From a virus (taxonomy: Duplodnaviria > Heunggongvirae > Uroviricota > Caudoviricetes): a stretch of DNA of 64,000 nt. Below, in pieces: positions 2,070 to 62,769 of the stretch. Both the position numbers and the translations under genes were made by a program. The DNA lies in the IMG/VR virus record IMGVR_UViG_2706794662_000007, one strand, 5' to 3'. Below the pieces are notes generated by a model. The model did no database searches. It saw only the letters and a list, made by a program, of their open reading frames with translations, and was not told the origin of the DNA. Within the stretch, counting starts at the first letter, position 1. Every line of letters starts with the position of its first letter.

Positions 2070-2176
2070 CTGGTAGGTAGTTACTTACTTATCACAATGG
2101 ACGGATGATAGCGACTGGTGTCAGTTTTTGGAAGTGAAAACGGAAGGGAGTTGTTCTGGTGGTGTCTTTTAAAAGA

Positions 2177-2229
2177 CCTGCTTCCGTATATATTTAATAA
2201 GTTACTTATTATTTATATACAGAAACAGG
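2177..2229. repeat. ~53-bp near-perfect palindrome, copy A (CCTGCTTCCGTATATAT...ATATACAGAAACAGG)
   Basis: inverted arms flank AT-rich centre TTAATAAGTTACTTATTA; near-identical copies at 33069-33123 and 63687-63747. Confidence 0.75.
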
Positions 2230-2334
2230 CTCCTAATGGATACCAAGAACAACATAATTTGACTCCAACTCCAGATGCTATGTCATTGACAGATTTATCA
2301 AGGGAGATCATGTTAGAATTAGTGTTTTAGCCTC

Positions 2335-3408
2335 GTGGATATTGTCACCATGCGCATGAATAGACTTCCAGGATATGGCCTTCCCGAACTGGCTTTTTGG
2401 CCTCAGCCTAAATATGAACGGAATAAATGGTCGATGTTCTGTCTGAAACTCCGTAATGATGGAACCCTTGCTTGGTATCGGCGATATGTTGATCGTGGTA
2501 TGCCAAACCACGCTGTTGATGACGACTACGATAACTATCCTGAAGCAAGAAAAGCGGCATTAGAGCTGAATAAAAACGTGAGCTTTGACATTGAAAAACT
2601 TCCTCTATCTATGTTTCAAAAGAAGTCATTGCGTTTGAAAGTTGACAAAGCACTCAAAGCCAAATCACGTCTCATGGATGAAGAGTATATAATGCTCAAC
2701 GAAGCAATTAAGGCACACGCCAACGATCCGCGAGTGACATTAAATGAGTTAATAATTAACCCAGATTACGAAACTTTGCGTCAACCCCTTTTTGACGTGC
2801 TAAGCGAGATGCCTTACTTACATTTTGTTTTTCTTCCCAAATTCCAAGTTTCACTTCAACTCGTTGCTCCTAACACTTGGGAATGTTCATATAACAACAA
2901 AGCTAAGACAGCGAAGATCTGCTACCAAGAACGCATAGCCAGAGGTTTTGGTTTATCAGGTGCTGCACATTGGGGAAAAACAAAAGCGACTATTCGCTCA
3001 ATGCTTCTGCCGCGTGCTAACCGGTTACTGCAACTCGCCAGCGTAAAAAGAATGCTGGATGAAGCTCTCAGGAATGGGCAAAAGGTACTGGTTGTTGGCA
3101 ACTTTGTTTTCTGGTTTGAGGACAAAAATCAGGTAGGTTGGAGTGTTAAAGTTGCTAGCGAAAGCGAAACCACCTCAAGAGGCAATACGCTCTGGAAAGA
3201 AGGAACTATCATTTCAAAAAATCACGGTCGAATTGTCGTGCTGCCGTATACAAAAGAAAACGGTAAACATGTAAAAGGTTATACCAAGAATGCCCCTAAC
3301 GACGGCAATGCAATTCCGAGACATAAGGATGAGTATGTTGAGTTGCCCTTTGAAATTTTGGATGGTGACTTGATGTTCAGTCTGTTCGGTGAGCTTAACT
3401 ACGAATAG
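2335..3408 (+). CDS. hypothetical protein, 357 aa; AT-richer than flanks (cargo-like)
   Basis: ORF track; only plus-strand gene in a minus-strand region; no motif recognised. Confidence 0.5.
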   Translation: MDIVTMRMNRLPGYGLPELAFWPQPKYERNKWSMFCLKLRNDGTLAWYRRYVDRGMPNHAVDDDYDNYPEARKAALELNKNVSFDIEKLPLSMFQKKSLRLKVDKALKAKSRLMDEEYIMLNEAIKAHANDPRVTLNELIINPDYETLRQPLFDVLSEMPYLHFVFLPKFQVSLQLVAPNTWECSYNNKAKTAKICYQERIARGFGLSGAAHWGKTKATIRSMLLPRANRLLQLASVKRMLDEALRNGQKVLVVGNFVFWFEDKNQVGWSVKVASESETTSRGNTLWKEGTIISKNHGRIVVLPYTKENGKHVKGYTKNAPNDGNAIPRHKDEYVELPFEILDGDLMFSLFGELNYE

Positions 3409-3468
3409 CTTTCATAGAACGAAATATTTCTAAGGCTGTCCAATGCAGACCAGCCTTAGAGATTTATA

Positions 3469-3828
3469 TCAACCTTTCTTCATTAACTCGCGTTTAATTT
3501 CATCGGTACGCATCGTGACATCGGCAGCAGTGATCGCCTCGTTAAGCTTCACGATGTCCTCGATTTCCTGCGGTGACTTCTCTGCCAGATGGAAAATAGC
3601 AGCACGAATCACATCAGAGCGGGTGAATTTCTCGAAGCGAGGGATGAACTTCATCATCTCCAGCAGTTCGAAGTATTCGTCCTCCAGTGACATTGTGCGG
3701 CTTTTAATTTTCTCTTTGCCACGAGTCGGGCGTCCCTGTGGTCTGACTGGTTGGCGCAAAGGAGTTGTGTTCTTAGCCGGTGCATCAGACTCTTTGCGCT
3801 TTGCTAGGTCACCCATTTTCATGGACAT
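3469..3828 (-). CDS. small partition partner candidate (ParG/ribbon-helix-helix-like DNA-binding protein)
   Basis: 119 aa, basic N-terminus, start overlaps parA stop (ATGA-type junction at 3828). Confidence 0.35.
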   Translation of the reverse strand: MSMKMGDLAKRKESDAPAKNTTPLRQPVRPQGRPTRGKEKIKSRTMSLEDEYFELLEMMKFIPRFEKFTRSDVIRAAIFHLAEKSPQEIEDIVKLNEAITAADVTMRTDEIKRELMKKG

Positions 3829-4496
3829 TATTCTTCTTCCTCCAGACTCAACAGATAATCTACAAATTCTTCAAACTCGGCTTCCGCCTTTTTGTCGCGC
3901 TCGCTACCGGTCATTTCAAAGATAGAACGACCAGACTCTTCCGCATCATCATAGACGTTGCGGTTATATAGATTGACTGGCGCAGACTCGATGCCAAACG
4001 TCTCAACAATCTCTTTAGCCGCCAGAATGCGAGACACTTGTGATGGCAAAGCCGGGCACTGGTTCATGACCGCGCGGACCTTCACTTTATCGTTTACATT
4101 GCGAACATTGTCGATAATAGGATCGATGTCACGTAAAGATTTCAAATCACGACGCTTAGGACGCAGCGGGATAATGATAACGTCAGCCATCAGCATCGCT
4201 TGTCGCTGAATTTCGGAGTCGAAGCCACCAGCATCTACCACTACAAACTCAGCTCTACCCTGAAGCGATTTTAGGTGCTTAATGATGTCATCCTGAACGT
4301 ATGCAAAAGGAATCAGCTCAAGGTCTTCGTTCTGTCGACGGTCTTCACACCAGCTCGTTGTCGTGCGCTGAATATCTATATCGGTAATATAAACCTTCTT
4401 CTTCTTTTTGACTTTCAGGCAAACGGCAATTTGCTGGGCAACGGTGGATTTGCCAGGCCCGCCCTTTGTGCCGCCAACCACAAAGATCTTGGTCAT
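3828..4496 (-). CDS. parA: ParA/ParF-type partition ATPase
   Basis: deviant Walker A GGTKGGPGKST at N-terminus; 222 aa. Confidence 0.8.
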   Translation of the reverse strand: MTKIFVVGGTKGGPGKSTVAQQIAVCLKVKKKKKVYITDIDIQRTTTSWCEDRRQNEDLELIPFAYVQDDIIKHLKSLQGRAEFVVVDAGGFDSEIQRQAMLMADVIIIPLRPKRRDLKSLRDIDPIIDNVRNVNDKVKVRAVMNQCPALPSQVSRILAAKEIVETFGIESAPVNLYNRNVYDDAEESGRSIFEMTGSERDKKAEAEFEEFVDYLLSLEEEE

Positions 4497-7442: not shown

Positions 7443-7476
7443 GCTTCCTCCATGAGCAATCTATTTTAATATCCCC

Positions 7477-7494
7477 TTACATAATTTTATGTAA
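7477..7494. promoter_or_regulatory. perfect 18-bp palindrome TTACATAATTTTATGTAA in AT-rich region upstream of lysis cassette
   Basis: read directly; candidate operator or late-promoter element. Confidence 0.4.
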
Positions 7495-7539
7495 TTTAAA
7501 TATCAACTGAAATTTAAATAATATATAACCTTTTATATT

Positions 7540-8052
7540 TTAACTAATTTTCAAATCTTGTGTAACCCCCGTCCTTTTCATTGCCGTTATAAAGGCCGAA
7601 CTAGGTGTTCCTTGCCAGTAATAGTGAAAACCGTTAATAACACTATTGTAAGTAAAAACTTGTGAGACTCCACCAACTGTTACTGTAATATTGCTTGCCC
7701 TTCCCCCTGCGATGTATAAACCCCCAGTGGGCGGTAAACCTGGAACGTAGTGAGCTTGCGTAAGCACGATCCCCACTAAACGACCTAAACCACAGCTCGA
7801 AGCACCAGCAATTGTACCTTGGTTCTTTTCAGCCAATGGCCAATCTGAACCTACAGCCCCCCAGTTTTCGACTTTATCAGGAGGATTCCCTTTATAGTAA
7901 GCGGTTGCAATTTTACAGCCCATAGATCGTCCCACCATTTGACTCATCATAAAAGGTTTACCCAATCCTAACTTAGTACCCGCAGCGCTCATCCATTGTT
8001 CGCCCGTTTCGCTCTTAGCCGAAGAACCGACCCATCCCGACGCTACCCCCAT
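7540..8052 (-). CDS. glycine-rich hypothetical protein, 170 aa, downstream of tail fibre
   Basis: ORF track; Gly-rich segments; position typical of fibre accessory/adhesin genes. Confidence 0.4.
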   Translation of the reverse strand: MGVASGWVGSSAKSETGEQWMSAAGTKLGLGKPFMMSQMVGRSMGCKIATAYYKGNPPDKVENWGAVGSDWPLAEKNQGTIAGASSCGLGRLVGIVLTQAHYVPGLPPTGGLYIAGGRASNITVTVGGVSQVFTYNSVINGFHYYWQGTPSSAFITAMKRTGVTQDLKIS

Positions 8053-8137: not shown

Positions 8138-11100
8138 TTACTTCTCCCGAAGTTCTTTAATCTCATGACGAAGTGTTTTAAAGCCCTCGACTAACAATGC
8201 AATTATGCCGTTGTAGTTAAGACACAGACGTTTTTCACCAGATATAACGTCTGTGTCTTCAGTTACCAGTTCAGACAATGCTTTTTGTGCATCCTGAGCA
8301 ATTAAACCAACTGACGTTTTCCAACTATCATCAGAGAGTTGGATTTCATAAAGATAACCAGTAAGTGCCTCCAAACGATCTAACGCATTATCTAGCTTTA
8401 CCAGATTACGCTTGTTACGCTTATCTGAGCGGATCTGAACATCATTAAATGAGCCATTTCCATTTACAGTCAAATTACCTGTTATCGTACCCCCACCGAT
8501 AGGCAAAGCACCAATTTGAGCGGCACTTATACTAATATTTTTTGTTCCGTCGAAACTTACTCCATTTATAGTACGTGCTGTTTGTAGCTTAGTTGCTGAT
8601 GCTGCGTTACCAGATGTATTCTGATTTCCTGACGTATTCACACCTGGAAGATTAATGTTTGCGCTACCATCAAATGATACTCCACCTATTGTTCTTGATG
8701 TTTTTAATTTAGTAGCTGTTGCAGCATTACCTGATGTGTTCTGATTTCCAGCTTTGTTAACGCCTGGTAAATCTATATTCGCTGTACCATCAAACGATAC
8801 CCCCCCTATATTTCTCGCTGTTTTCAGTTTCGTAGCCGAAACTGCATTTCCATTTGAGGCAAGGGCGCCTATCTCTGAAGCCGTTGGTTTATTTTGAGAA
8901 CTGTAATTACGACGCCATGTTGGGCTATAGTTATCGCCGTTGTATGTATAAATAAACTCACTATTAAGAACAGCACCAGATGCACCTCCAGATGTTGAAG
9001 GTGTTGTAATGCGTATAGTGTAATTACTTGTACCGGTTGAAAACACCTCAATAACAGAACCAGCAAGAGGTATAACTCCACATCCCGTTGATGCATTTCC
9101 TATATAACAGTTACTACCATAAGACCAGCTACAACGTGTGCTCCACTGAGTTGCATCAAATGCCCCTTGTGAATTTAACCATGCGACAAATTGTGCAGTT
9201 GTCCACTCTTGAGTATTCCCCGTAGCAAGATTAGCAACATATTTTGCTGCACCTAGTTGTTTTGGCGTGATGCTTATATTCTTTGAGCCATCAAAACTGA
9301 CCCCATTTATTTTTCGTGCCGTTGCAAGTTTTGTCGCCGTTGCAGCATTACCTGACGTGTTCTGATTTCCAGCTTTATTGACACCAGGTAAGTCAATATT
9401 TGCAGTGCCATTAAACGATACCCCACCTATTGTTCTTGCCGTTTGCAGTCTCGTTGCGCTCCCTGCATTACCTGTTGTACTCTGATTTCCAACCTTGTTA
9501 ACGCCTGGTAAGTCAATATTTGCAGTGCCGTCAAATAACATTCCACCAATTGAACGAGGTGTTGCTAACTTAGTGGCAGAGGCAGCGTTTCCACTAGTAC
9601 TCTGAGTTCCTGTTGAGTTTACACCTGGTAGATTTATATCTGATGAACCATCAAACGGTACTCCGCCAATTTTTCGTGCTGCTTTTAATTTTGTTGCGGT
9701 ATCGGAATTTCCGTTAAGTGAGCCTGCAAGACCATTACTAAATGTTTGCTTTGCACTCCATGTATTGGCTGTACTCAATAAAGGTATTTTATCGCCACTT
9801 GTTCCATTTTCCTTCAATCCAAGATACTGAATAATCGCCTGTACACTTGCTTTAGAAAGAATATCTCGACCAACAGAAGTTATTGTTGCTAATCCAGCTG
9901 TATCATTCCCTGTAAAATAAGGAAGTTTATTAGCGGCTGTTGTTAGTCCAGCCAGTGCAGTCAGCGTAGCATCAAGAGGTTGTTTTGTGGCCAACTTGTT
10001 CGTCATTGTTGTGGCAAAATCGGGATCATCACCCAAAGCCCTTGCCAACTCATTAAGAGTATCAAGCGCTTCAGGTGATGATCCTACAAGACCTGAGATC
10101 GCTTCTCTTACATAAGCAGTTGTGGCAATTTGCGTATTATTAGTGCCTTGAGTCGCCGTTGGTGCCGTTGGTGTGCCAGTAAATGCTGGGCTGTTGATTG
10201 CTGCTTTTCTATCAGCAAGATCCTTTACACTTTTAACCGCTTTTGTTGTTGCGGCCAATGATTCAGAGGCGTTATTTGTATCGCTACTTAATTGAACCAG
10301 CCCTTTTTGTGAAGTTGTCGCGTCATTTGCAGTATATTTTGATTTAGCAAGATCAAACGCAGCCTTTACTGCTTTTGGTGTTGCTGCAAATTCTTCTGAC
10401 GAACTGCTCGTCTCACTGCTTAATTTGACAATACCCTTCATAGTCAAACTGGCATCATGTAATGATATCGCTGACAAAGCTCTTTCTGCTCTAGTAGCAG
10501 CTATCTCTGCACGCTCTGCCGATGCAAGTGCTGATGTTTGGCTTTGCTTTGCTTCTTCTGCTTTAGCCGCAGATTCAGCTGATTTCGATGATGCGTTACT
10601 AGCACTAGTTGAGGCTTCAGCAGACTTTCGGCTAGCTTCATCCTTCGAAGCTCTAGCAGCAGACGCATAAGTTGAAGCCTGATTAGCGGATGTCTTCGCA
10701 GACCTTGCCGACTCTCTAGCCTGATTTGCAGAAGTTGATGCACTGCCAGCACCAGAAGCAGCATTCATTTCAGATAATTTTGCAGCCTCTTTAGAGACCA
10801 ACGCAGCATTAGCCGAACTTGTGGCTTCTGTTGCCTTAGTGGAAGCTGTTGATGCAGAAATTGCAGCTGCGTTCTTCGCCTCTAAAGCACTTGTTTCTGA
10901 TGCTTTAGCACTTGATGCACTTTTATTTGCTGCATTTTTAGACGCTGTAGCATCCAACGCACTATTAGATGCCTGAGTAGCCTTACTGCTTGCTAGATTC
11001 GCACTCTTCGCCGCAGCCGACGCACTGGCCGCAGCCTGTTTTGCTTTATCTCCTGCGGAATTAATTGCGTTAGTATTATTTTCATACCATTCTACGTGCT

Positions 11101-11509
11101 TATTATGCTCCGCGATAATCTTAGAAAGAGGTTTTACATTAACATTAGTGCCATCTTCTCGCTCAAGAGTAACTTCATCTACGGCAGTTAACCAATTTCG
11201 AACTGTTTTTGCATCACCAGACATTCGTGATAAAAGAGCCGTAAATCTCGCACTAAACTGTGTCAAATCTCCTTCGTAGGTAGTGATGATCCTACATGGT
11301 ATATCACTTTGCGTTTCACCAGTATAGTTTTCAACCAACGTTAAGGTTGTGTCATTTGTTACGCTTTTAATTTCATACAATTTATTATCAGGTGCGACGA
11401 CAATCATGCCAGGCAACACACCATTGGCCGTAACGTTCCATGCTGTCCCAGCACCAACCAGAGTATTGCTGCCTTGTGTAAATGTGATAGTACCTTCCCT
11501 GTACCACAT
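8138..11509 (-). CDS. tail fibre protein with tandem ~38-aa fibre repeats and C-terminal intramolecular chaperone (S74-like) domain
   Basis: repeated ATKLxTARxIGGVSFDGTANIDLPGVN units; Ala/Ser-rich coiled region; C-terminal chaperone-like tail. Confidence 0.85.
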   Translation of the reverse strand: MWYREGTITFTQGSNTLVGAGTAWNVTANGVLPGMIVVAPDNKLYEIKSVTNDTTLTLVENYTGETQSDIPCRIITTYEGDLTQFSARFTALLSRMSGDAKTVRNWLTAVDEVTLEREDGTNVNVKPLSKIIAEHNKHVEWYENNTNAINSAGDKAKQAAASASAAAKSANLASSKATQASNSALDATASKNAANKSASSAKASETSALEAKNAAAISASTASTKATEATSSANAALVSKEAAKLSEMNAASGAGSASTSANQARESARSAKTSANQASTYASAARASKDEASRKSAEASTSASNASSKSAESAAKAEEAKQSQTSALASAERAEIAATRAERALSAISLHDASLTMKGIVKLSSETSSSSEEFAATPKAVKAAFDLAKSKYTANDATTSQKGLVQLSSDTNNASESLAATTKAVKSVKDLADRKAAINSPAFTGTPTAPTATQGTNNTQIATTAYVREAISGLVGSSPEALDTLNELARALGDDPDFATTMTNKLATKQPLDATLTALAGLTTAANKLPYFTGNDTAGLATITSVGRDILSKASVQAIIQYLGLKENGTSGDKIPLLSTANTWSAKQTFSNGLAGSLNGNSDTATKLKAARKIGGVPFDGSSDINLPGVNSTGTQSTSGNAASATKLATPRSIGGMLFDGTANIDLPGVNKVGNQSTTGNAGSATRLQTARTIGGVSFNGTANIDLPGVNKAGNQNTSGNAATATKLATARKINGVSFDGSKNISITPKQLGAAKYVANLATGNTQEWTTAQFVAWLNSQGAFDATQWSTRCSWSYGSNCYIGNASTGCGVIPLAGSVIEVFSTGTSNYTIRITTPSTSGGASGAVLNSEFIYTYNGDNYSPTWRRNYSSQNKPTASEIGALASNGNAVSATKLKTARNIGGVSFDGTANIDLPGVNKAGNQNTSGNAATATKLKTSRTIGGVSFDGSANINLPGVNTSGNQNTSGNAASATKLQTARTINGVSFDGTKNISISAAQIGALPIGGGTITGNLTVNGNGSFNDVQIRSDKRNKRNLVKLDNALDRLEALTGYLYEIQLSDDSWKTSVGLIAQDAQKALSELVTEDTDVISGEKRLCLNYNGIIALLVEGFKTLRHEIKELREK

Positions 11510-11603
11510 GTTGAATCTGCTCCTTTAATCAGGTGGGCTATCCTTGCCCACCATTAAGTATGTAACTACCTATTATTATCGATAAAAATATTTTTTTCCA
11601 TAA

Positions 11604-14600
11604 TCAAAGTCGACCAATTCTTACCCTGAGTACATTATTGTCGTCGTAAACGTCGATTCTCTGCCCATTGATAACTAATCTCCCATTTCCTCCACTGTTA
11701 CCGTTAATCTCAAGCGTTCCGTTTTTGCCAAATCTCCATCCGGCTCGTCCTCTTACGAAGTTTGTTGATTGTAAGTCACCTACCTTTGCGTTTGTGATAG
11801 TGCCATCTTTGATATAAGCACCGTTCATATACGCAACGCTGTTTTCGATAACAAATGGCGTTGTGATCTTCCCATTAACATTGTTGACCAAACCAAATCG
11901 ATCTGCCCGCACCAAAAACTGAGAAAGCCCCGTTGTATCAATACCCAGCGCAATGCCCGCTACATACTTCTGCCCACCACTCGTTGAAGTTTCCATCTTC
12001 AATGTGTACGAGGTTGATACTTTTCTATTAGCGTCAGCTATAGCAGAAGCCTGCTGCTGAATAACGGCAACATTTCCATCTACAGACGCTTTCAGTGTAT
12101 CAATTCGTTTTCCTAGAGCGTTGTCTGCACTTGTTCTGGCCTTTGACTCTGACGTAATCGCTGCATTGATATAATTTGTTGTTTGCGACTGGAGATTAGT
12201 TACCCTTGTCGAAAGCGCTGCATCAGCATCAGTTCTGGCTTTCGTCTCTTCTGCTACAGCAGCCTTTATATCTTTACCTGTTTGTGTCTTTAGTGAGTTA
12301 ATCTGCGACGTCAATGCGGTATCAGCGGCAGCTCTTGCTTGAGTTTCAACCGCAACAGCTGCACTTATATCCTTAGCAGTTTTTGTTTTAAAACTTGCCA
12401 AGTCTTTTGCAATGGCAGAATCCTGACTTGTACGAGATGTCGATTCTCGCTCTATCGAGGACTGAAGATTATTAGCCCTCGTAGTAAGAGAAGAAATTTG
12501 TCTGGATAATGCATCGTTAGCGTCAGTTCTTGCTTTGGTTTCAACTGCTACCGCCGCTGCAATGTCTTTACCTGTTTTTGTTTTTAAACTACTAACTTCT
12601 CTTGATAGTGCACTATCGCCTGATGCTCTGGCTTCTCTTTCCTCATTAATAGCAGCTGATATGTCATCATCTACTTTTGCCTGCAATTGATTAATTTGTG
12701 TGGATAACGCTGAATCGCCGCTAACTCGCGCTTGTTGCTCACTTTTAATAGCAGCAGATATATCGTTATTAACTTTTGTTTGAAGTTGAGTTATTTGCCT
12801 TGATAATGCTTCATCTTGCGTTGCTCTTGTTTGTTGCTCTTCTCTAATAGCGGTTGAAATATCAGTATTTACTTTAGACTCCAGTTGTGTGATCTGCTTT
12901 GAAAGAGTCTCATTGGCCGATGCTCTTGCAGATTGTTCGGTCCTTATTGCGGCACTGATATCACCTTCAAATTTACTCTGTAATTGTGTCACACGATTGG
13001 CTAACGCATTATCACCATCAGTTCTGGCTGTCGCTTCTTCGAGAATAGATGCTCGAATGTTGTCACCAATCTCGGCTCGTATCTCTTCAACCTTAGACGC
13101 CATTGCTGACACATCATCGACAAGAATCTTTTGAGTCGTGGCAATTTTCGCGTTATTTACCAGCTGTCTGTGCTGATCTTCGTCCTGCCGCAACGCAAGA
13201 TCGATATTTGTCTTAGAAATGGCTTCAAGATTAGTTGTGATTTCTGAACTTACTCTTCCTACCTCAGCAACCGTTCTCCGCATTTCTTCTACAGCCGCAA
13301 CACTTTCATCAACCGATGATCTCATCGTTTCTATCTTTTTAGCATTCGCTAGATCTGCTTGTGCACGAACTTTACGCTCTTCGGCAATTAAAGATGATGC
13401 ATTTTCAAGTGCCGCATTTGCTGCTTCTACGACACCAGCAACAGAATCACCTTGTTTTGATACTGTATTACGTAGTTCAATAAGTGCTGCATTTGAATTT
13501 TCAACTTGTCGTAATGCATCATCTACTTTTTCCCGAGTGCTAGAAACTTCCGTTCTAAGCTCGCTTTGCGCATTCTCCAGTGTCTCGCTGCGTTCAGTAA
13601 ACGATGTTTTGAACTCATCGATACTACTCGTTAGCTCCTTATTTAATGCGGAAATTTCACCTTCCAGAGATTCGACGCTCTGATCGATATGATTATTGAT
13701 TTCATCAACAGCTTGTTGAGAAGCCTTACTGTCAATTTCCTCATTTAAAGCCTGGCCAAGTTCTGACGAGGTAATTTTATTGGCTAAAAATGAAAGAACA
13801 TCTCGCGTTGTGGCCTCTGTACCAAGATTTGAGTTTGGGCGACTCAACATGCCACGCTTATTTGCTGATCTAACCCAGTAATACCAAGTTTCACTATCCC
13901 CAAGACCAGAATGTGTAAAGGTGGTGCTTGCAGACTCTGCGATCAGTTTCGCCGTATCCAGATTGTTGGTCTGGGATGCGTAAACATTAATGTGATCAAG
14001 GTCTACCGAATCTGGATTAACCCAATTCAGTATCACATTACGATAGTCTCCAACGGCCGTTAATGACGTTGGTGCATCCGGCGGTGTCATTGTGCCCAGC
14101 ACCTGATAAACGGTACTGATAATCTCTGTTTTTTTACCGTTGAATGAAACCGCATACAGTTGGAAGTCGTAGCGTCCATTCTCCGCGACATTAACGATTT
14201 CGTATTGCTCTTCGGTTACACGTGCCGATTGCCAGTTCGATACATTGTTTTCATCAGAACGTCGCCAACTGATCCAATACTCTGGAGATTTCCCTTCCCA
14301 TGTTGCAGTCAGTTTTACTGACAGGTTGCCTGGGCTTGAGAGATAAGTCCCTTCGGTGATTTGCAAATTAGACGGCTTGGAGTAAGTCGGGTCCAATACC
14401 GTCGTATTCTGCGGGATAAGCGTTGCACCATTGTCGATTGCCTCATATTTAGACGGATTGTTCTCAACAGCGGTGATGTCAAAGCTACCCGACGTTTCCC
14501 CCTGAGCGATGTTAACGATGCGAACGCGCATAGGTTCGAGATCTGGTTCTGTGATTGTCCATACACCGTTCAAAACAGGCGTTTCCGCTGACGACAGAGC

Positions 14601-18165: not shown

Positions 18166-18414
18166 NNNNNNNNNNNNNNNNNNNNNNNNNNNNNNNNNNN
18201 NNNNNNNNNNNNNNNNNNNNNNNNNNNNNNNNNNNNNNNNNNNNNNNNNNNNNNNNNNNNNNNNNNNNNNNNNNNNNNNNNNNNNNNNNNNNNNNNNNNN
18301 NNNNNNNNNNNNNNNNNNNNNNNNNNNNNNNNNNNNNNNNNNNNNNNNNNNNNNNNNNNNNNNNNNNNNNNNNNNNNNNNNNNNNNNNNNNNNNNNNNNN
18401 NNNNNNNNNNNNNN
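18166..18414. other. run of 249 N (unresolved or masked bases)
   Basis: literal n characters. Confidence 1.
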
Positions 18415-18488
18415 CCTTGAAATAAGTAGGCGCTGACATCCTGTCAGCGCCACAATGATAGTAAATTAGTACTTACTTATCCAGATAC

Positions 18489-24098: not shown

Positions 24099-24165
24099 TT
24101 GTTAAAATCCTTTTAAAAGAGAGGCCCATCATGAGCCTCAATTTATAGATTAATAAGTTGCTTGA

Positions 24166-24903: not shown

Positions 24904-24976
24904 TGATGGAAACTCCTTTTTCCGTTAATTTCACGCATTCATTGCGCTATATTTAAGTATATACTTACCTATTTAT

Positions 24977-27572: not shown

Positions 27573-27606
27573 TTAAGCATAGGTAATTACACACCTATTA
27601 TTTTAG

Positions 27607-29461: not shown

Positions 29462-31036
29462 TCACTCGTTCTCTTGAGTAGATGAGTCCCCATTCCCTCG
29501 GGGTTGATCTTGCCCGCTTTCTTGGGCTGCACCACGATCATAAGTAAGTACTGACTTATTTTCAAGGGTATTTAGATCATTTTTTGGAGGAAAATTCAAG
29601 AGATCTTTATCAAATTCCTTTTTCATCGCCTCAGTAATGTTCGGGAAAATCTTCTCAATAAGCATTTCCATCTGGTGACGACGTACAGAGTCCGGTGCCT
29701 GAAGTAATGACAGTTTCTCGGCAACAGAAAATTCATCAGTAAGGCCACGAATATCGAAACTTTCTGGATACGCAATTAAAGAGTGGTCTTCGTCCAGATC
29801 TACCCCCATCCATTTCGCAACCAGTAGCATGATTTGGCGTTCAGCCCTTTCCAGACGCTCTGCTTTTGTGACAAGCAAGCTATTTACACGCTGGAAGTCA
29901 TACATTTTTGCGGCACCAGATGAATTATCGATTCCCTGTGCGTTGTCCTGCTTCGTTCGCTCACCAGCTACACCAACTGAATGGTAGATTTCGTTAATCA
30001 CCGTCTTAATCGTAGTGATGATCATCTGAGCTTGTTTCGGGTCTGGTGACAGATAAAACGGCTGGTTTCCACCTTCAGAATCGTAGGTGAAGACTCGCTT
30101 TGTGCCCATTTCAAGCACTTTAGTGTGGTTTTCATCACCAGGTAAAAGCGACTGTACCGGTATAGCCAACTGGCTAAATGTCTGATCCTGAATAATGGCA
30201 TCAAGGTTTGACAGATAGTTTGCAACCGCACGATCAAGATAAGCGATATCATCGATCAACGATGGGCTGAAATACGGTGATTCACTTTCTCCAATACAAT
30301 CAACAGGAAACACAGGAACTACGCCGAGATTATGCTCACCGCTATCCTCTAAAATAACTTTTGCCTGACGGCGACCTGCTCCACCAGCGCCCTTCTTCAC
30401 TTCCTCACGGAACAGATACCACTCGTTTTGTGTCCACAGACGATAACGTTGGTATTCCTGACCTGTAGAAGTAAAAGGATCTGCGTCATCACGAGCGACT
30501 TCCACAATTAACGCCCACAACATATTCCCGTCGTCGTCCCATGCCACATCCAGCATTTGCTGAGGTGAAATCCAGTAGGCGTAGGCGCGAGCATCTTTCT
30601 TTTTCTCGTCAGCTACTGACTCAACATCACCACTCATCGTGCTATCGACAACAACCCATATGCGACCGTAAATAGACGACTGCAAATCAATAGCGGCCAT
30701 AAATGAGTCAATAGAGGCATTCTGGCGAGTCGCACGTTTCCAGAAATTGCGGATCTGCTCTGGTGCCTCTTCGATATTTCTATGAATGTCTTCTTTAAAG
30801 AGATATTTGTTGATGAGGTTTACCACCTCACGAGTGTGGTTGAAGCGATAAGCACGTTCAACTCGCTCCTTAAACTCCTGATCTCCCTCTTTAAAGTAAC
30901 GAAAGATATTGTCTGTAAACCAACCACGCCCGCCAGCGTAAGTGCTGGCGAGGAAGTCCCAATGTTCTTTTTTCTTTTCGTATTCCGGGTGGCGTCGCGC
31001 CACCAGATCCTTAATTTGTTTGTCGTTCAATTCCAT
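29462..31036 (-). CDS. portal protein
   Basis: 524 aa immediately downstream of TerL. Confidence 0.7.
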   Translation of the reverse strand: MELNDKQIKDLVARRHPEYEKKKEHWDFLASTYAGGRGWFTDNIFRYFKEGDQEFKERVERAYRFNHTREVVNLINKYLFKEDIHRNIEEAPEQIRNFWKRATRQNASIDSFMAAIDLQSSIYGRIWVVVDSTMSGDVESVADEKKKDARAYAYWISPQQMLDVAWDDDGNMLWALIVEVARDDADPFTSTGQEYQRYRLWTQNEWYLFREEVKKGAGGAGRRQAKVILEDSGEHNLGVVPVFPVDCIGESESPYFSPSLIDDIAYLDRAVANYLSNLDAIIQDQTFSQLAIPVQSLLPGDENHTKVLEMGTKRVFTYDSEGGNQPFYLSPDPKQAQMIITTIKTVINEIYHSVGVAGERTKQDNAQGIDNSSGAAKMYDFQRVNSLLVTKAERLERAERQIMLLVAKWMGVDLDEDHSLIAYPESFDIRGLTDEFSVAEKLSLLQAPDSVRRHQMEMLIEKIFPNITEAMKKEFDKDLLNFPPKNDLNTLENKSVLTYDRGAAQESGQDQPRGNGDSSTQENE

Positions 31037-31062
31037 TTGAATAACCTTAGATAATTACTTAC

Positions 31063-32319
31063 CTATCGAGAACCACCAAGAATAACACGATTTTTTACTG
31101 GATACCTACGATGTACTGGATAGCCCAATGCGTCTGCACTATGCTCAATGCCACCTGTCTTATCCATATCTCGTGTTCCAGGCTTGTAGATGACTTTTTC
31201 CAGTGAATCAATCAAATGCTTGCACTTCGGATCGATATACAGCCGGATATCTCCAGATGCGGACATCAGCATTCGGTTAACAGCATTAACACGATCCGCA
31301 ATTGGCGGGTGCTTTTTCGAATAATCGACACGTAAGAATCCCTTCTCTTTGAATATGTCTACGTCAGACTCCCCACGAGCATGTTGGCGATAAGCACCTG
31401 CCGGATCTGGAAATACCGTTACCTGTGATTTCCAGCGCCAGAAGCGTCTCTCAAGCTCATCACAAACTTCTGCCGTGTTAGAGGAAAAGAGCACCAATTC
31501 ATCAATTGCCCATAGCTCACCATTTGGCTGAGGTTGCAAAATTACTGAAGACATCGGGTCAATGTTGAAGTCCTGCCCTACCCATATAGGCAACCGAGGG
31601 TTGAACTGAAGCGGTTTTACATGCACGTTACGATCGAACGGGTAGTAAACGCGCCCGGACATGTTCTCAAAGCTCGCCAGGTACTCCTGAGCGAACGATT
31701 TCGGGTCCATATCGTTCTTAGCAGCTTCAATTTCCGCCGTAGGTACAAACGGAGAATCGGCAGTTACAAACTGCCAGCTCTTCCACTGTCCCTTTCTTTG
31801 CAGCTCTACGTTCTGGCCTATAGTCCACAGTTTGTGAAATTCCGAGAAGCCTTTTGGCGTACCAATGATCAGTGCACCGCCGCGTGTCGATGAAAGAGTA
31901 GGTCGTAACACCTTGTACCAGGTGTCAGCCTTCATATCCTGAAATTCATCAAGCACTACAAAATGCAACGCTACGCCGCGCAGAGTGTCAGGCTTATCAG
32001 CACCTTTGAGGGCGATCTCCGAACCGTTCTTCAACACGATTGTCATCGTGGTGTCGTTCTTTTTCCTAACCCACTTACGAGGCAGAACTTCCTGTAGATC
32101 GTCCCACAAAATCTGGCGAGCCATCTGGTAAGTAGGAGCGACATACCAGACTCTTTGCTTTTTTTCCTTTGCCGCCGCACGAATAATAGTGGAGATCGAC
32201 AACCGGGATTTTCCCCAGCGTCGACCAGCACAAACAACTTTAAATCGATGCGGAGACTGGAAGACTTTCATCTGTCCAGAATGCAGTTGCACAAGACTGA
32301 GCGAGGACGGGATTGCCAT
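31063..32319 (-). CDS. terminase large subunit
   Basis: Walker A CAGRRWGKS and Walker B VVLDEFQD; C-terminal nuclease-like acidic residues. Confidence 0.85.
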   Translation of the reverse strand: MAIPSSLSLVQLHSGQMKVFQSPHRFKVVCAGRRWGKSRLSISTIIRAAAKEKKQRVWYVAPTYQMARQILWDDLQEVLPRKWVRKKNDTTMTIVLKNGSEIALKGADKPDTLRGVALHFVVLDEFQDMKADTWYKVLRPTLSSTRGGALIIGTPKGFSEFHKLWTIGQNVELQRKGQWKSWQFVTADSPFVPTAEIEAAKNDMDPKSFAQEYLASFENMSGRVYYPFDRNVHVKPLQFNPRLPIWVGQDFNIDPMSSVILQPQPNGELWAIDELVLFSSNTAEVCDELERRFWRWKSQVTVFPDPAGAYRQHARGESDVDIFKEKGFLRVDYSKKHPPIADRVNAVNRMLMSASGDIRLYIDPKCKHLIDSLEKVIYKPGTRDMDKTGGIEHSADALGYPVHRRYPVKNRVILGGSR

Positions 32320-36550: not shown

Positions 36551-36632
36551 TTTATTGCTACAATCCACTAAGTAATCACTTACTTATTATAATAGCCAAA
36601 TAACATACAAAAGGCACTAAGGAAAGAGGTTT

Positions 36633-43575: not shown

Positions 43576-43627
43576 AGTGTCTTGGTTATTTTTCTATTTT
43601 ATAGACATAGGTATGTACTTACAATAC

Positions 43628-43652: not shown

Positions 43653-43688
43653 CTGTCGTACTGTCGACTAATTACCACTTGCACATTA

Positions 43689-50735: not shown

Positions 50736-50755
50736 TACTGTTCATTTACACAGTA
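50736..50755. promoter_or_regulatory. LexA (SOS) box TACTGTTCATTTACACAGTA
   Basis: perfect CTGT-N8-ACAG core 17-36 nt upstream of UmuD'-like start; in-frame TGA upstream excludes longer ORF. Confidence 0.7.
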
Positions 50756-50904: not shown

Positions 50905-51423
50905 CTAAAAATCAAANNNNNNNNNNNNNNNNNNNNNNNNNNNNNNNNNNNNNNNNNNNNNNNNNNNNNNNNNNNNNNNNNNNNNNNNNNNNNNNNNNNN
51001 NNNNNNNNNNNNNNNNNNNNNNNNNNNNNNNNNNNNNNNNNNNNNNNNNNNNNNNNNNNNNNNNNNNNNNNNNNNNNNNNNNNNNNNNNNNNNNNNNNNN
51101 NNNNNNNNNNNNNNNNNNNNNNNNNNNNNNNNNNNNNNNNNNNNNNNNNNNNNNNNNNNNNNNNNNNNNTTTAAAGGAAGATAGGTTCCCCATAGTAGCT
51201 GTCTGCCGTGCGCTCGTGTGAAATACCGGGCCATCTTCGGATTGCTATGCTGCTTAGGAGCGCCTGGTCTGTATGTCTGATACCCGGCCAACATCCCATC
51301 AAACCTGTATAGAGGGAATGTAACAACTCCTTCGCTTTCATCGATCCACTGTCTATATGGATGCACATCATAGCGGTAGTTACGAGTTAGCAAATGAGCT
51401 TCCAGCTTTCCAAATTTAGTCAT
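50905..51423 (-). CDS. hypothetical protein interrupted by N-run
   Basis: N-terminal part MTKFGKLEAHLLTRNYRYDVHPYRQWIDESEG... visible; start at internal Met. Confidence 0.4.
   Translation of the reverse strand: MTKFGKLEAHLLTRNYRYDVHPYRQWIDESEGVVTFPLYRFDGMLAGYQTYRPGAPKQHSNPKMARYFTRAHGRQLLWGTYLPLXXXXXXXXXXXXXXXXXXXXXXXXXXXXXXXXXXXXXXXXXXXXXXXXXXXXXXXXXXXXXXXXXXXXXXXXXXXXXXXXXXXXXFDF
50917..51169. other. run of 253 N
   Basis: literal n characters. Confidence 1.
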
Positions 51424-53489: not shown

Positions 53490-53739
53490 NNNNNNNNNNN
53501 NNNNNNNNNNNNNNNNNNNNNNNNNNNNNNNNNNNNNNNNNNNNNNNNNNNNNNNNNNNNNNNNNNNNNNNNNNNNNNNNNNNNNNNNNNNNNNNNNNNN
53601 NNNNNNNNNNNNNNNNNNNNNNNNNNNNNNNNNNNNNNNNNNNNNNNNNNNNNNNNNNNNNNNNNNNNNNNNNNNNNNNNNNNNNNNNNNNNNNNNNNNN
53701 NNNNNNNNNNNNNNNNNNNNNNNNNNNNNNNNNNNNNNN
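53490..53739. other. run of 250 N
   Basis: literal n characters. Confidence 1.
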
Positions 53740-56041: not shown

Positions 56042-56422
56042 CTAATTGCCGTATAAAATGGGGTGAGGTGCTTGCCAGTAGGCTCCACCGGTCCATGTGA
56101 ACCCCATGCGAATAAGAGTGTTTATTGCGGCTTTGGTAGACTCCGATTCGACACTGGCTTTACGAAACTCTTGAACCTCTTTCGCCAACCTGTATGTAAT
56201 TGTGCAGGGGACGATTGCAGCCCAGCCTTTCTCATGACTGTTAATGACCATCTGGATGTGACCATCCAGAATAGGTTGATTAGACATGTTATTGAAAATG
56301 TCTGCCTGTTTTTGAATGTGAAGAAAAAGCCTTGCCAGCTCCATTTGCTCACTACGAGACAAGGGATTATCAAGAGGGCTTTTTGCAAAAGCGGCTATAC
56401 GCTGTGCGTCAATGCCAAACAT
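56042..56422 (-). CDS. hypothetical protein, 126 aa
   Basis: ORF track. Confidence 0.45.
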   Translation of the reverse strand: MFGIDAQRIAAFAKSPLDNPLSRSEQMELARLFLHIQKQADIFNNMSNQPILDGHIQMVINSHEKGWAAIVPCTITYRLAKEVQEFRKASVESESTKAAINTLIRMGFTWTGGAYWQAPHPILYGN

Positions 56423-57126
56423 CAGCGCACCTCACCATCTTTATGGCTGGAGTTAACTTCCGCCATTAAATGTCTGACGTAATCGACAAGAGAGCCACCT
56501 GGTGGAATCTGGCATTCCTCAACTAACTGGAAGTAGATATCCGCAGCATTACGTGTATTGCTACCCGCGCATATTCTTTCTTCCCGAAGTGCATGAAGCT
56601 CGTTGATCAAACGGTCACACTCTCCGTTACGCTGATCCACAACAGCCTCAAGTTCTGCGACGCGTTCACCTGGCGTCTTACCTTCTTCGCGTTGGATGGT
56701 AACGACGAAATCGCCAATTGCAGGGACGTTGTAATCCAGCTCAAGGTAGTTTTTGGCACCGCTGCGGACGAACTCACCCGCGAACATGGTGGCGAACATC
56801 TCAGAGGCCATTGTGCTGTTGAAAAGTGACTCCAGATCTAACGGAGTCCCGGCAGCCAGAGCCTCTTTTGCTGTATCCATTGTATCCATGAACCGATCAA
56901 ACTCATTAGCGCGCTTTTCCAGGTCTTTCCATTGCTCGCTCCAACGTTTGGCAATGAAGTCTATGAATGTTTTCGCGGATTCATCAAAATCCCCCTCAAA
57001 CTTAACGATGCCTTTATCAATAATGATCTGGCCTACCGCATCCTCTGCATAACCTTTCAATGTAAACTTGAAAGGAAAATCAGAATGGCCTGTGACGTTA
57101 AAATGCTCTAACTGGAGGTTGTTCAT
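56422..57126 (-). CDS. hypothetical coiled-coil protein, 234 aa
   Basis: ORF track. Confidence 0.45.
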   Translation of the reverse strand: MNNLQLEHFNVTGHSDFPFKFTLKGYAEDAVGQIIIDKGIVKFEGDFDESAKTFIDFIAKRWSEQWKDLEKRANEFDRFMDTMDTAKEALAAGTPLDLESLFNSTMASEMFATMFAGEFVRSGAKNYLELDYNVPAIGDFVVTIQREEGKTPGERVAELEAVVDQRNGECDRLINELHALREERICAGSNTRNAADIYFQLVEECQIPPGGSLVDYVRHLMAEVNSSHKDGEVR

Positions 57127-57187
57127 ATGTTTTTCTCTTATCGTTTAGTTATTACATTCTTACACAAATTAAGTAAGTATTTACCTA

Positions 57188-58892
57188 TCATTTAACGCGT
57201 TTGAAAACGTATACGCTGACTGTGATCCCTGTGTCTTCAAACTCGTTGGTAAACGACTTCCCTCTGGCATAAACGTAATTATCCATCGTCATCCAGTCCA
57301 GTATTGGCGCNNNNNNNNNNNNNNNNNNNNNNNNNNNNNNNNNNNNNNNNNNNNNNNNNNNNNNNNNNNNNNNNNNNNNNNNNNNNNNNNNNNNNNNNNN
57401 NNNNNNNNNNNNNNNNNNNNNNNNNNNNNNNNNNNNNNNNNNNNNNNNNNNNNNNNNNNNNNNNNNNNNNNNNNNNNNNNNNNNNNNNNNNNNNNNNNNN
57501 NNNNNNNNNNNNNNNNNNNNNNNNNNNNNNNNNNNNNNNNNNNNNNNNNNNNNNNNNNNNNNNNNCCAGATCGGCGTTAATATAGGCCAGAAGATCCCCA
57601 CGTCCGGCTTGAGGCTCCAACAGCTTCTCACCAGGCTTCAATTCAGTGGCTCTGGCAACGTACTCAGCAATCAAGCGTGGGGTAGGGTAGAACTGGTGTG
57701 ATTTTGTATCCGGTATTAAACCGGTAGCCACAATCGTATTTAGCGTATGGCCGATCTCATACGGGAACTGCCAGTGCTTTTTCTCCTGCACGCCGCCAAT
57801 GAAGCTCAGTGTGCGCTCAAGCTCTTCCACCTGCGACTTCTGGAGAGCTGAATCAGAGAAGTACCATACGCCTTTGTCTTTGCTCAATCGCCCGTCACGA
57901 AGCGCAGTGCGAACCGGCACGGAGATCGTCTTCTGGATTAACCCGAACTGCTTTGGTGCCCGTGTTTTTGGCGCAGTTCGGCATGGCGCGGGGATTGCAG
58001 CAGGCATACTGTAAGCCAGCACCTCATTCAACTTCCAGGCCACGTCAGGATGTATTTCAAAGTGAACGTTGCCGTTCTTGAACATCTTCACGCGCATCAG
58101 ATTTCCATCGACGTTCATCCAGTCACCGGTCTGGCAGTCGTTTGCCCGATACGCAGCTGATAGCACCTCAGCAGTGCGGTTGATGGTAATAAATTCTTTG
58201 TGCGCGAAGAAATGAAGCAAGACACGCAGATCGTCGATGTAGTCCTCTTTGCGATAGTTCACGCTAACGCTGTCACGCCAGAAATCAGAAATGCAGTCAG
58301 CGATTATCAGACGCTCGCTGAAACCGTTTGTCTTATTTGTCTTGTGCGCAGGACTCAGCGCCTTAAACAAGCCATACACGCGCTCAGAGAGATATTTGTG
58401 CCTGTCATTCAGCAAATTAAGCATCGTTGGTATGACCGTTTCTGCTTTGAACTCCGGTACACCAACGAACTCTTTAACCTTCATCTGATAGCCGGTTCTG
58501 TCAGTTTTGATGACTTCCTGCTTGCCCTCGATAAATAGCTCACGCCACTCGTCGCGACGGGAAGCTGGCATGATCAGCAGAACGTTAGTCATATCCGTAA
58601 CCTTCCTCCAGTACTCGGCCCAAATATTCTGTTTCACCCATTCCAGATCGACGTTATCCAGCCAGACTCGATTCAAACGTGAGCGATCTTCATCTGGTCG
58701 GTGGTTTAGTCGAAGCAGGCGATTAATCATGTTGTGGCGTTCATCGCCATAAACGAAGTCGTGTACCTGATACATGAAGGAGATCTCTTTCTCGCACTCG
58801 GCCACAATTTCGTGGATGACGTTCATTTCCTGTCGATAGTCGATAGCAGTGTTTGAGCTGGCATCGCCCATGATGGAAAGGGCTGTATTCAT
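57188..58892 (-). CDS. gamma-class N6-adenine DNA methyltransferase-like protein with ~390-aa N-terminal extension (interrupted by N-run; C-terminal frame uncertain)
   Basis: motif X-like QFYPTPR and motif I-like LEPQAGRGDL just before mask. Confidence 0.5.
57311..57565. other. run of 255 N
   Basis: literal n characters. Confidence 1.
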
Positions 58893-61244: not shown

Positions 61245-61337
61245 GTGTTTTCCTTTTGTTATTGGTCAAAACAAGTTGTTTTCTAGTTAAATAAATTGCT
61301 TACGCAAAGACGGTCAATGCATATGCACTAACAACCG

Positions 61338-61526
61338 TCAGAAATAACCAAGTACCGAACCGACTGGAAAAATAAAAATCCCAACTACACGAGCCAAGGT
61401 CATGCCAGCCTGAAACTGGAGATCGCCAGAGCAAACAAGTTTTATAATGTTCGATACCCAACCGGCGGCCATGAGGGCAAGAATTGCCAGCCAAATTTTT
61501 CCAAAGTGATTTGAAAACCAGTTCAT
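61338..61526 (-). CDS. small membrane protein, 62 aa
   Basis: two hydrophobic helices. Confidence 0.3.
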   Translation of the reverse strand: MNWFSNHFGKIWLAILALMAAGWVSNIIKLVCSGDLQFQAGMTLARVVGIFIFPVGSVLGYF

Positions 61527-61774
61527 ACAACCGCCTTAGTCACAGCATGATCCTGAGTAACTGGATGAACTTGAGGTATCGCATCCACCGTCATCCCATC
61601 CAGAGTGACAGGTCGCTCTACTGGAGTGGTGGTAATTGTCGTCGACGGAGGTGTGGTGATGGATGAATCCGGCATCAAAAGGCTCTGACCGGCTGGAACG
61701 GCTACCGTCGCCAGTGAAACTATAATGAGAACGTAGGCCATTGGTTTCAGCCTCTTTCTTTGAAAATTTTCCAT
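61523..61774 (-). CDS. small secreted/membrane protein, 83 aa
   Basis: N-terminal hydrophobic segment MAYVLIIVSLATVAVPA. Confidence 0.35.
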   Translation of the reverse strand: MENFQRKRLKPMAYVLIIVSLATVAVPAGQSLLMPDSSITTPPSTTITTTPVERPVTLDGMTVDAIPQVHPVTQDHAVTKAVV

Positions 61775-62051
61775 TCGAACTGTCCTTGTTGTTTTTCTCC
61801 TTCACTAAAGGCCGTGCATTTTTCGCTTCGCGTGAAGAACCAGAGGCAACAATCGCCCACACGTTCGCAACAACTGACGCTTGATTATCTAAACGTTCAT
61901 TCAGCAACCGAACGGTAGTCTCTAGTTCATCAAGGCGTGACATAACACGACCGCTAAATAATTCGGCCAAAATTTGACGTAAAGAACGAGGACGTTTAGT
62001 TACAGAAGTGAAATAGGTTTGACGTGCCATGTGGACTCCATCCAGTGTCAT
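61536..62051 (-). CDS. hypothetical ORF; only N-terminal ~85 aa look protein-like
   Basis: overlaps 61523..61774 in another frame. Confidence 0.25.
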   Translation of the reverse strand: MTLDGVHMARQTYFTSVTKRPRSLRQILAELFSGRVMSRLDELETTVRLLNERLDNQASVVANVWAIVASGSSREAKNARPLVKEKNNKDSSNGKFSKKEAETNGLRSHYSFTGDGSRSSRSEPFDAGFIHHHTSVDDNYHHSSRATCHSGWDDGGCDTSSSSSYSGSCCD

Positions 62052-62175
62052 AAAGAGTTGCGGCTGGCAATCGCCAGCCGCCTTTCTCGTTCCATCCTGG
62101 AACTGTGTCTTACCGACACATTGTCATCCTGACGCCGATAAGATACATGATTTATAATGATAGGTAAACACTTAC

Positions 62176-62769
62176 TTACTGTTTGTTATAAACAAAACCA
62201 ATATCTTTCTTGTGAGGCATATCTGCTGCTGAAAAAGCTGCGATCTTCGCGAGTCGATCACATATTTCATTTTCACGATGCCCGGCGTGACCTTTAACCC
62301 ACTTCCAGCGAACATTATGTCGACTTGCGGCCTCATCCAGACGCTTCCACAGATCAACATTCTTTACCGGTTTTTTGTCAGAAGTCATCCATCCATTGCG
62401 TTTCCACCATTTCATCCACTGTGTCATGCCGTTTTTCAGATACTGGCTATCAGAGTGCAAAATAACGTTGCATGGATATTTCAAACGCTCCAGCCCGATA
62501 AGTGCCCCCATCATCTCCATGCGGTTATTGGTGGTGCTATGAAAACCATCTGAGAACTCGCGTTCCTCGCCACGATACTGGAGAACGATACCGTAACCGC
62601 CCGGGCCACCCGGATTTTTAAGGCAAGAGCCATCACTAAAGATTTTCACGGTTTTAAGCTGGGGATTGAACTCTACGACAGGCGTTGTGGGATTGGTGCG
62701 GGGAGAATTTTTGTTTTTGTCTTTTTTGCGAGTTTTTGCTTGCGGTCGGGCTGGTGTCTTCGTTGTCAT
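62176..62769 (-). CDS. ribonuclease HI homologue with basic N-terminal extension
   Basis: FSDGSC, NNRME, HSDSQY, ENEICD segments match RNase HI catalytic DEDD positions; start at [10 protein letters not shown]. Confidence 0.8.

Follow-up and report, generated by a model that had tools for sequence, protein, structure and literature searches.

Dispersed 20-bp palindromes in SSU5-like phage-plasmids are a probable operator network of the immunity repressor

The 64,000-nt stretch of DNA analysed here (IMG/VR record IMGVR_UViG_2706794662_000007, hereafter the window) is part of an SSU5-like phage-plasmid of ~109 kb, along which one short motif recurs, often at the junctions between genes. The question raised by this motif is what recognizes it and at which level. 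The initial annotation had proposed a second operator family, an RNA processing site or a late-gene control element. We found that the motif is very probably a transcription-related binding site for a dimeric protein encoded by the element itself. Comparison of related genomes further suggested that the sites probably form the dispersed operator network of the immunity repressor, a 128-aa Cro/C1-type helix-turn-helix (HTH) protein homologous to CYRAN_45 of phage Cyrano and encoded beside the integrase.

Clinical Enterobacterales very commonly harbour SSU5-like phage-plasmids, which carry resistance genes; in PLSDB, 664–823 plasmids of Klebsiella, Escherichia, Enterobacter, Yersinia, and Salmonella matched their backbone. 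An 8-kb section of the window (24000–32000) shared 98.9% identity with Escherichia phage CMS-2020a (CP054387), 97.8% with PhiR41_1, and 93% with the E. coli LF82 phage Cyrano; identity was ~80% with Salmonella phage SSU5 and ~78% with SSU5-like elements of Klebsiella. The genes of the window lie mostly on the minus strand, and their names were transferred from annotated relatives. A literature search by motif sequence and by SSU5 regulation returned no published account of the palindrome motif or of lysis-lysogeny control of the SSU5 type.

The motif, ATAGGTAAGTA...TACTTACCTAT, is a 20-bp imperfect palindrome, ATARGTAAGT·ACTTACYTAT (consensus ATAGGTAAGTACTTACCTAT), with a fixed register and a constant length. 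The window holds 12 copies, 11 of which are intergenic. Matches to ATAGGTAAGTA with at most one mismatch numbered 10 against 0.53 expected, a count reached in none of 100 shuffles, and ATARGTA-N6-TACYTAT with at most two mismatches gave 13 matches against 0.28 expected; an origin by chance in an AT-rich background was thus not upheld. The ten strong copies listed in the initial annotation were genuine, with coordinates 0–9 bases off the true starts. The list had overlooked a strong copy at 29540–29559 and a weak one at 63332–63351, and the weak copy that it had placed at 4597 was rejected because its score was too low for membership of the family.

To place the motif across genomes, sites were called with a symmetric weight matrix in the full genomes of SSU5, Cyrano, and the Klebsiella element pJN2-26, which yielded 65 strong sites (24, 19, and 22, respectively). 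Non-coding DNA makes up just 12–13% of each genome, and 58 of the 65 sites were intergenic (21 in SSU5, 18 in Cyrano, and 19 in pJN2-26; binomial P 1e-15 to 1e-17). The complete genome closest to the window contained ~25 sites with a matrix score of at least 12. Site positions were kept at orthologous junctions in these three genomes, and more widely in elements of E. coli, Salmonella, Klebsiella, Cronobacter, and Pectobacterium. Late-side positions included the TerL|portal, M|L, and J|fibre junctions, the interior of the portal gene at its 3' end, and places downstream of the capsid gene and upstream of the tail-tube and holin genes. Early-side positions included places upstream of the helicase-primase operon and of the ligase, SSB, sbcD, nrdA, thyX, and dam genes, and one between the ParB_N and UvsW-like genes. 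The suggested role as a late-gene control element was therefore too narrow: structural and lysis genes are preceded by sites, but the motif is not late-specific, since replication, recombination, and nucleotide-metabolism genes were preceded as often in the full genomes. The exact sequence at a given orthologous site differed among relatives yet stayed near the consensus, and this turnover indicates a selected binding site, maintained for protein recognition rather than for sequence identity.

Whether the palindrome acts as DNA or as a transcribed hairpin was addressed with the same 65 sites. Over all sites together, the two halves formed 473 complementary pairs, compared with 476 ± 6.5 when right halves were shuffled among sites (P = 0.71), and departures from the consensus were one-sided in 144 cases and compensatory in 7. 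Relative to gene direction, either half could be the better one, with ratios of 12:11 in SSU5 and 10:10 in pJN2-26, and the AT-rich flanks were roughly symmetric. One site serves a divergent gene pair. The independence of the halves, the absence of a consistent strand bias, and the site in the divergent promoter region together point to the binding site of a dimeric DNA-binding protein, and not to a hairpin, a translational operator, or the RNA processing site that had been suggested; an RNA hairpin or processing site was rejected on the covariation and strand tests.

The copies in the window, with their positions relative to genes and promoters, were as follows (ORF, open reading frame).

2073..2092: reads ATAAGTAAGTAACTACCTAC on the minus strand, with 12 nt between it and the downstream ATG of the helicase-primase operon's first gene (ORF 1320–2069, minus); lies 12 nt downstream of a sigma-70-like promoter TTCCAA (2133–2128), 17 nt, TATCAT (2110–2105), which puts it at transcript positions of about +6 to +25
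11554..11573: junction of the genes for host-specificity protein J (11604–16316, minus) and tail fibre (8138–11509, minus), followed on the minus strand by hairpin GGTGGGCAAGGATAGCCCACC
18461..18480: junction of the genes for minor tail proteins M (18489–18824, minus) and L, followed by hairpin GGCGCTGACAGGATGTCAGCGCC
24953..24972: between the tail-completion gene and the gene for an Ig-domain tail protein (24166–24903, minus)
27579..27598: perfect ATAGGT-N8-ACCTAT, 8 nt past the stop codon of the major capsid gene (ORF 27607–28527, minus), with the intrinsic terminator of the capsid gene directly after it (stem 27572–27556, then a T-run)
29540..29559: within the 3' end of the portal gene (29462–31036, minus), with 100 nt between it and the next gene downstream
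31047..31066: overlaps the TerL stop codon (TerL 31063–32319, minus) and ends 10 nt before the portal ATG (31036)
36568..36587: between the divergent ParB_N-domain gene (minus, ATG near 36550) and UvsW-like DEAD-box helicase gene (36633–38192, plus)
43607..43626: directly after a minus-strand terminator (43628–43660), upstream of ORF 43168–43575 (minus)
57169..57188: between a DUF4942-type gene (57279–58892, minus) and an Ead/Ea22-like gene (56422–57126, minus)
62160..62179: between an RNase H-like gene (62176–62853, minus) and ORF 61536–62051 (minus), with -10-like hexamers on both sides
63332..63351: weak, with one good half (ATAGATAAGT), right after ORF 63351–63605 (minus)

The four junctions named in the initial annotation (M|L, TerL|portal, capsid|next gene, and J|fibre) and the perfect repeat at 27579–27598 agreed with this catalogue. 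GC-rich minus-strand hairpins were located between the motif and the next gene at 11530–11551, 18424–18446, and 27550–27575; the one at the capsid gene is a true terminator with a T-run, and the same order was seen before nrdA in SSU5.

Promoters were surveyed by scoring the DNA at each site with a sigma-70 matrix at positions counted from the site, and gene direction was compared with the mirror orientation and with background. Hexamers resembling a -10 element were ~100-fold enriched at the ends of the palindrome; TAT plus 3 nt at motif positions 18–23 scored well in 51% of cases in gene direction, 54% in the mirror direction, and 0.5% in the background. Complete -35/-10 promoters were enriched in gene direction only, at 11–12% for each of three offsets (among which sites may overlap), compared with 2–3% in the mirror orientation and 0.1% in the background.

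Four promoter geometries were verified in the window. The site at 29540 occupies the spacer of a minus-strand promoter, TTGAAA (29565–29560)-17-TATGAT (29542–29537), which has 10 of 12 consensus matches and is the best sigma-70 promoter of the region; a matching hexamer pair recurred in every relative examined, despite the coding location and the diverged flanks. The site at 43607 contains a -35 hexamer, TTGTAA (43624–43619), 17 nt from the -10 hexamer TAAAAT (43601–43596), and its half-site TATTGTAAGT is degenerate because the -35 hexamer is embedded there. The site at 2073 lies at about +6 to +25, and its TTCCAA/TATCAT hexamers recurred beside the orthologous copy of SSU5, Cyrano, and pJN2-26. 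The site at 36568 is abutted by a perfect TATAAT (36588–36593, plus). No credible promoter was found at two further sites, 31047 (a weak -10 match and no -35) and 27579 (no convincing promoter geometry), and both are candidate sites of a roadblock type. Such variable placement over core promoter elements fits repressor operators and not activator-dependent promoters. A single fixed architecture, with the -10 always just upstream or always downstream of the motif, was rejected since several geometries were found and none fits all sites. The motif was likewise rejected as a promoter read by an RNA polymerase or sigma factor of the phage; the annotations of SSU5, Cyrano, and pJN2-26 include neither gene, and the symmetry of the palindrome is unlike that of a promoter.

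The immunity region of these elements falls outside the window. In Cyrano, it consists of the integrase, a 128-aa HTH protein annotated as putative repressor (CYRAN_45), and a small divergent gene. The Cyrano lysogen expresses the repressor gene, and ciprofloxacin induces the phage (PMC9928086). In the closest full genome, the repressor is 97% identical. The repressor gene has a conserved promoter, TTTACA-16-TAATAT, and a variant site, AT-CGGTAAGCACTTACC-AGA, begins with the last two bases of its -10. The core of this variant, GGTAAGYACTTACC, started within the -10 of the repressor promoter in all lineages of the window's clade, over repressor identities of 56–100%.

No homologue of the repressor was found in SSU5, which is described as a virulent phage. 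At precisely the position of the SSU5 breakpoint (~42643), an Enterobacter ludwigii plasmid that is 99% identical has an integrase-regulator module of ~6 kb.

NZ_CP134672.1, 3630–9333: module lost from SSU5, with phoH, Gp49, grxA, a toxin gene, the integrase gene, the regulator gene at 8470–8856 (128 aa), and the small divergent gene

The position of this module and the 99%-identical flanks indicate that SSU5 is a recent repressor-deletion derivative that has retained its sites, and loss of the integrase-repressor module probably accounts for its lytic lifestyle. Because SSU5 keeps all sites without the module, the sites are not needed as targets of an activator encoded there.

The sites also co-varied with the repressor. 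Distant relatives kept the outer bases ATARGTA...TACYTAT, and the inner six bases differed by clade. We compared these bases with the recognition-helix region of the repressor in 23 IMG/VR contigs and in the plasmids Cronobacter JZ38 and Pectobacterium Drgb1, and found three types.

Inner AGTACT (triplet AGT), the window's clade: recognition-helix region GYKN(A/P)N(N/I)LSLIK
Inner GTTAAC (triplet GTT), Cronobacter JZ38 plasmid and five IMG/VR contigs: recognition-helix region GYENANNLSNIKTG
Inner TTTAAA (triplet TTT), Pectobacterium Drgb1 and related contigs: recognition-helix region GYS(A/S)HNN(I/V)SMLKSG

Two repressors of the AGT clade that are only 56% identical overall have the same recognition helix. 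Both AGT and GTT types occurred in Enterobacter hosts, which shows that specificity follows the element and not the host. Peptide patterns of the repressor and integrase did not detect the repressor in the divergent clades, where it was identified by searching with the repressors of the annotated Cronobacter and Pectobacterium plasmids. Ranking candidate binders by their divergence between clades was uninformative, as all candidates diverged together.

Of the three roles suggested initially, a second operator family was the one best backed, given the symmetric palindrome with independent halves, the overlap with promoters in varying geometry, and the link to an HTH repressor. We infer that the repressor binds the sites and that binding represses transcription. 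In the plasmid (lysogenic) state, repressor dimers would then occupy ~25 palindromes over the ~109-kb genome. Repressor bound at a sigma-70 promoter, be it in the spacer, over the -35, at -10/+1, or shortly past the start, would block initiation or early elongation. Where a site without a promoter lies in a short operon gap, as at TerL|portal and capsid|terminator, bound repressor could plausibly act as a roadblock that halts read-through transcription. Loss or inactivation of the repressor would derepress all lytic modules together. The outer bases (ATAGGTA) are shared family-wide, and the three inner bases of each half-site, which track the recognition helix, would define immunity groups.

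A number of observations weigh against this reading. A recognizable -35 is missing at most sites. At five orthologous junctions, the site lies upstream, not downstream, of a hairpin or terminator, unlike a simple promoter-operator, and a simple promoter model gives no explanation for the order of stop codon, site, hairpin, and next gene. Some directionality was hinted at in Cyrano, where the gene-proximal upstream half was nearer to the consensus at 13 sites and the other half at 6 (Wilcoxon P = 0.02). The Pfam HTH matches of the repressor were below threshold (HTH_19, E = 8e-4), and the site near the repressor gene is placed otherwise in Cronobacter and Pectobacterium, 100–200 nt upstream. 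The co-variation spans only three clades and is confounded by phylogeny, and other DNA-binding proteins diverge between the same clades too, so that the link between motif and repressor is correlative and suggestive.

We considered four other explanations. The palindrome might be bound by a phage activator that replaces the -35, in the style of P1 Lpa or phi29 p4, and the copy at the repressor promoter would then switch that promoter off during lytic growth. Such activator-dependent lytic promoters would account for the good -10-like hexamer with a poor -35 at most sites and for the placement of sites before lytic genes that are silent in lysogens, and the high-quality sites retained by the repressor-less SSU5 would also be as expected. 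We nevertheless regard this explanation as unlikely. The -10-like hexamers belong to the palindrome, being as frequent in the mirror direction, and the geometry is not fixed, the site serving as a spacer, carrying the -35, starting in the -10, or lying at +6 to +25. In six orthologous groups, the start codon is 1–17 nt from the end of the site, and a transcript starting ~10 nt past the site would therefore leave out the ribosome-binding (Shine-Dalgarno) sequence. The SSU5 deletion looks recent, so its retained sites tell little. The annotations of SSU5, Cyrano, and pJN2-26 contain no Lpa-like or sigma-like gene, a negative drawn from annotation and not from a homology search, and the restriction to late genes that is typical of Lpa does not hold, with sites also before replication and nucleotide-metabolism genes. 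Very unlikely, in our estimate, is a set of ParB-type loading or centromere-like sites, bound by the two ParB_N proteins of the window (35870–36568 and 35202–35903, minus) for partition, condensation, or KorB-like silencing. There is precedent in the dispersed centromere sites of the phage-plasmid N15 and the dispersed KorB operators of RK2, one site lies directly upstream of the ParB_N operon, although the sites are dispersed genome-wide, and both proteins have ParB N-terminal domains. However, Pfam detected the ParB_N domain only and no HTH, and a separate ParA-type locus (3828–4496, minus) has no site of the family. The overlap of sites with core promoter elements in gene direction also argues against this role, and the site at the repressor promoter and the co-variation with the recognition helix point elsewhere.

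The chances are smaller still for an RNA-level element, that is, a transcribed hairpin for mRNA processing, stabilization, or translational repression. Such an RNA might be bound by the FljA-like protein of the window, a strong homologue of Flag1_repress, given that Salmonella FljA acts on fliC mRNA; the sites moreover lie between cistrons, often beside stop codons or ribosome-binding sites. Against this stand the lack of compensatory covariation and the lack of strand bias in two of the three genomes, together with an AU-rich stem of 8–10 bp that is often mismatched, the single site serving a divergent gene pair, and the site that holds its position in the spacer of a conserved sigma-70 promoter. 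Equally improbable is that a DNA-binding protein of the host targets the sites, or that they are passive linkers aiding recombination between related elements. Their location at module boundaries and their sharing by so large a plasmid family would agree with this, but AGT and GTT variants are both present in Enterobacter hosts, the LexA box CTGT-N8-ACAG is not matched, and turnover near the consensus speaks for selection for protein recognition.

The operator network proposed here can be compared with known dispersed systems. Mycobacteriophage L5 and its cluster A relatives carry more than 20 operators or 'stoperators' of 13 bp, which are asymmetric, bound by a monomer, and orientation-dependent (PMC9283540). 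As in L5, many copies of one short site occur genome-wide at promoters and in short intergenic gaps of early and late operons. In contrast to L5, the SSU5-like sites are 20-bp palindromes with equivalent halves and are neither asymmetric nor consistently oriented. The L5 repressor is a monomer with two DNA-binding domains, whereas the SSU5-like candidate is a 128-aa protein with a single HTH and is presumably dimeric. The host is Gram-negative, the prophage is a plasmid, and the elongation block is only a proposal here. D29, a lytic relative of L5, derives from a repressor deletion and still carries the sites; its relation to L5 parallels that of SSU5 to the repressor-bearing plasmids.

In phage P1, the C1 repressor has 22 operators dispersed over the genome, with a 17-bp asymmetric consensus, ATTGCTCTAATAAATTT (PMC8546580). 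Like P1, the SSU5-like elements are enterobacterial plasmid prophages with many dispersed candidate operators rather than a single immunity region, but their motif is palindromic and not of the 17-bp asymmetric kind, and their candidate repressor is annotated as an XRE-type HTH protein and is not C1-like. The late structural operons of P1 are controlled indirectly via Lpa, whereas the SSU5-like palindromes lie within the structural and lysis operons. In Streptomyces phage phiC31, conserved inverted repeats of similar length, mostly intergenic, are present in many copies genome-wide and are bound by the c repressor. It is perhaps the closest palindromic analogue, although sequence, host, and repressor family are unrelated.

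The SSU5-like system thus resembles P1 and L5 in layout and differs from them in their defining features of sequence, symmetry, and orientation. It shares the general traits of dispersed operators: many copies genome-wide, placement at promoters and in short gaps, and a site of its own at the repressor gene, the last more loosely in Cronobacter and Pectobacterium. As judged from sequence comparison, the motif is most likely an instance of the dispersed repressor-operator type already known from P1, L5, and phiC31. A more specific combination is possible and is put forward tentatively. The sites may be the palindromic equivalent of stoperators in SSU5-like phage-plasmids of Enterobacterales, with ~25 sites and a small dimeric HTH repressor that would block promoters and act as a roadblock in structural and replication operons, and with mutually heteroimmune groups set by the inner 6 bp (AGTACT, GTTAAC, and TTTAAA) together with the three recognition-helix variants.

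If this holds, heteroimmune groups would decide which of the resistance-gene-carrying SSU5-like elements can superinfect a cell or coexist in it. Immunity groups could be predicted from sequence alone, namely the inner triplet and the recognition helix, for typing and for predicting co-residence, and the choice or engineering of SSU5-type biocontrol phages could use such predictions. The model would explain the virulence of SSU5 by its deleted repressor module, and the operator consensus and candidate repressor provide a testable regulatory map of the whole element. Should the sites without promoters stop the polymerase, the stoperator principle would extend from actinophages to Gram-negative plasmid prophages.

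The LexA SOS box has a similar 4-N8-4 layout (AGGT-N8-ACCT in our motif), an AT-rich interior doubling as a -10-like element, and variable placement at promoters. The recognition bases differ, AGGT-N8-ACCT being found at every site instead of CTGT-N8-ACAG, and an S24 peptidase domain is absent from the candidate binder. The host LexA box was rejected on its differing core, and a scan for LexA boxes gave counts at chance level. One LexA-like box, CTGTGTAAATGAACAG, is located at 50738–50753 (minus), 19–34 nt upstream of a umuD-like S24 peptidase gene (50330–50719, minus). It is the only well-placed LexA-like box in the window, and its placement suggests SOS control of the umuD-like gene.

Some parts of the window differ from its relatives or are masked. 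The motif copy upstream of the holin gene that is present in Cyrano and SSU5 is missing at 7443–7540, where the sequence differs, and the Ig-like decoration gene that comes after the capsid gene in both phages is absent from 27510–27606. Six masked N-runs of 250–329 nt each (18165–18414, 41580–41843, 48400–48728, 50917–51169, 53490–53739, and 57311–57565) interrupt several ORFs and might in principle conceal more copies of the motif. Hidden copies are unlikely, because the Cyrano sites of the matching span, except the one upstream of the holin gene, all have counterparts in the window.

Two loci encode the proteins named above as possible binders. Besides the two ParB_N-domain proteins, the minus-strand operon at 33148–36568, directly upstream of terS and distinct from the ParA partition locus, encodes an ATPase of the ABC type, an 88-aa product that carries a DNA-binding annotation in Cyrano, and two uncharacterised proteins, one of 299 aa. 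The FljA-like gene (39245–39766, plus) encodes 173 aa with a full-length match to Pfam Flag1_repress (E = 1.4e-68), the family of the FljA repressor of phase-1 flagellin. It is kept in SSU5, Cyrano, pJN2-26, and the Cronobacter plasmid, and its product may allow the phage-plasmid to manipulate host flagellin.

The window also contains three large palindromes with GC-rich arms (CCTGCTTCYGTATATA ... TATATACAGAAGCAGG) and an AT-rich centre.

2165–2225: upstream of the helicase operon
33035–33157: upstream of terS
63687–63747: beside the dam region

All three centres had been described as carrying half-sites related to the motif. Two of them (near 2197 and 33089) indeed read ATAAGT-T-ACTTAT, and the centre of the third is different. 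The large palindromes were set apart from the motif family, with ATAAGT/ACTTAT hexamers in only two of the three and a spacing of 1 bp instead of 8 bp. They may serve as major control regions for early or late genes, as origins, or as terminators acting in both directions. Low-scoring matches marked two of their three positions in SSU5 and Cyrano.

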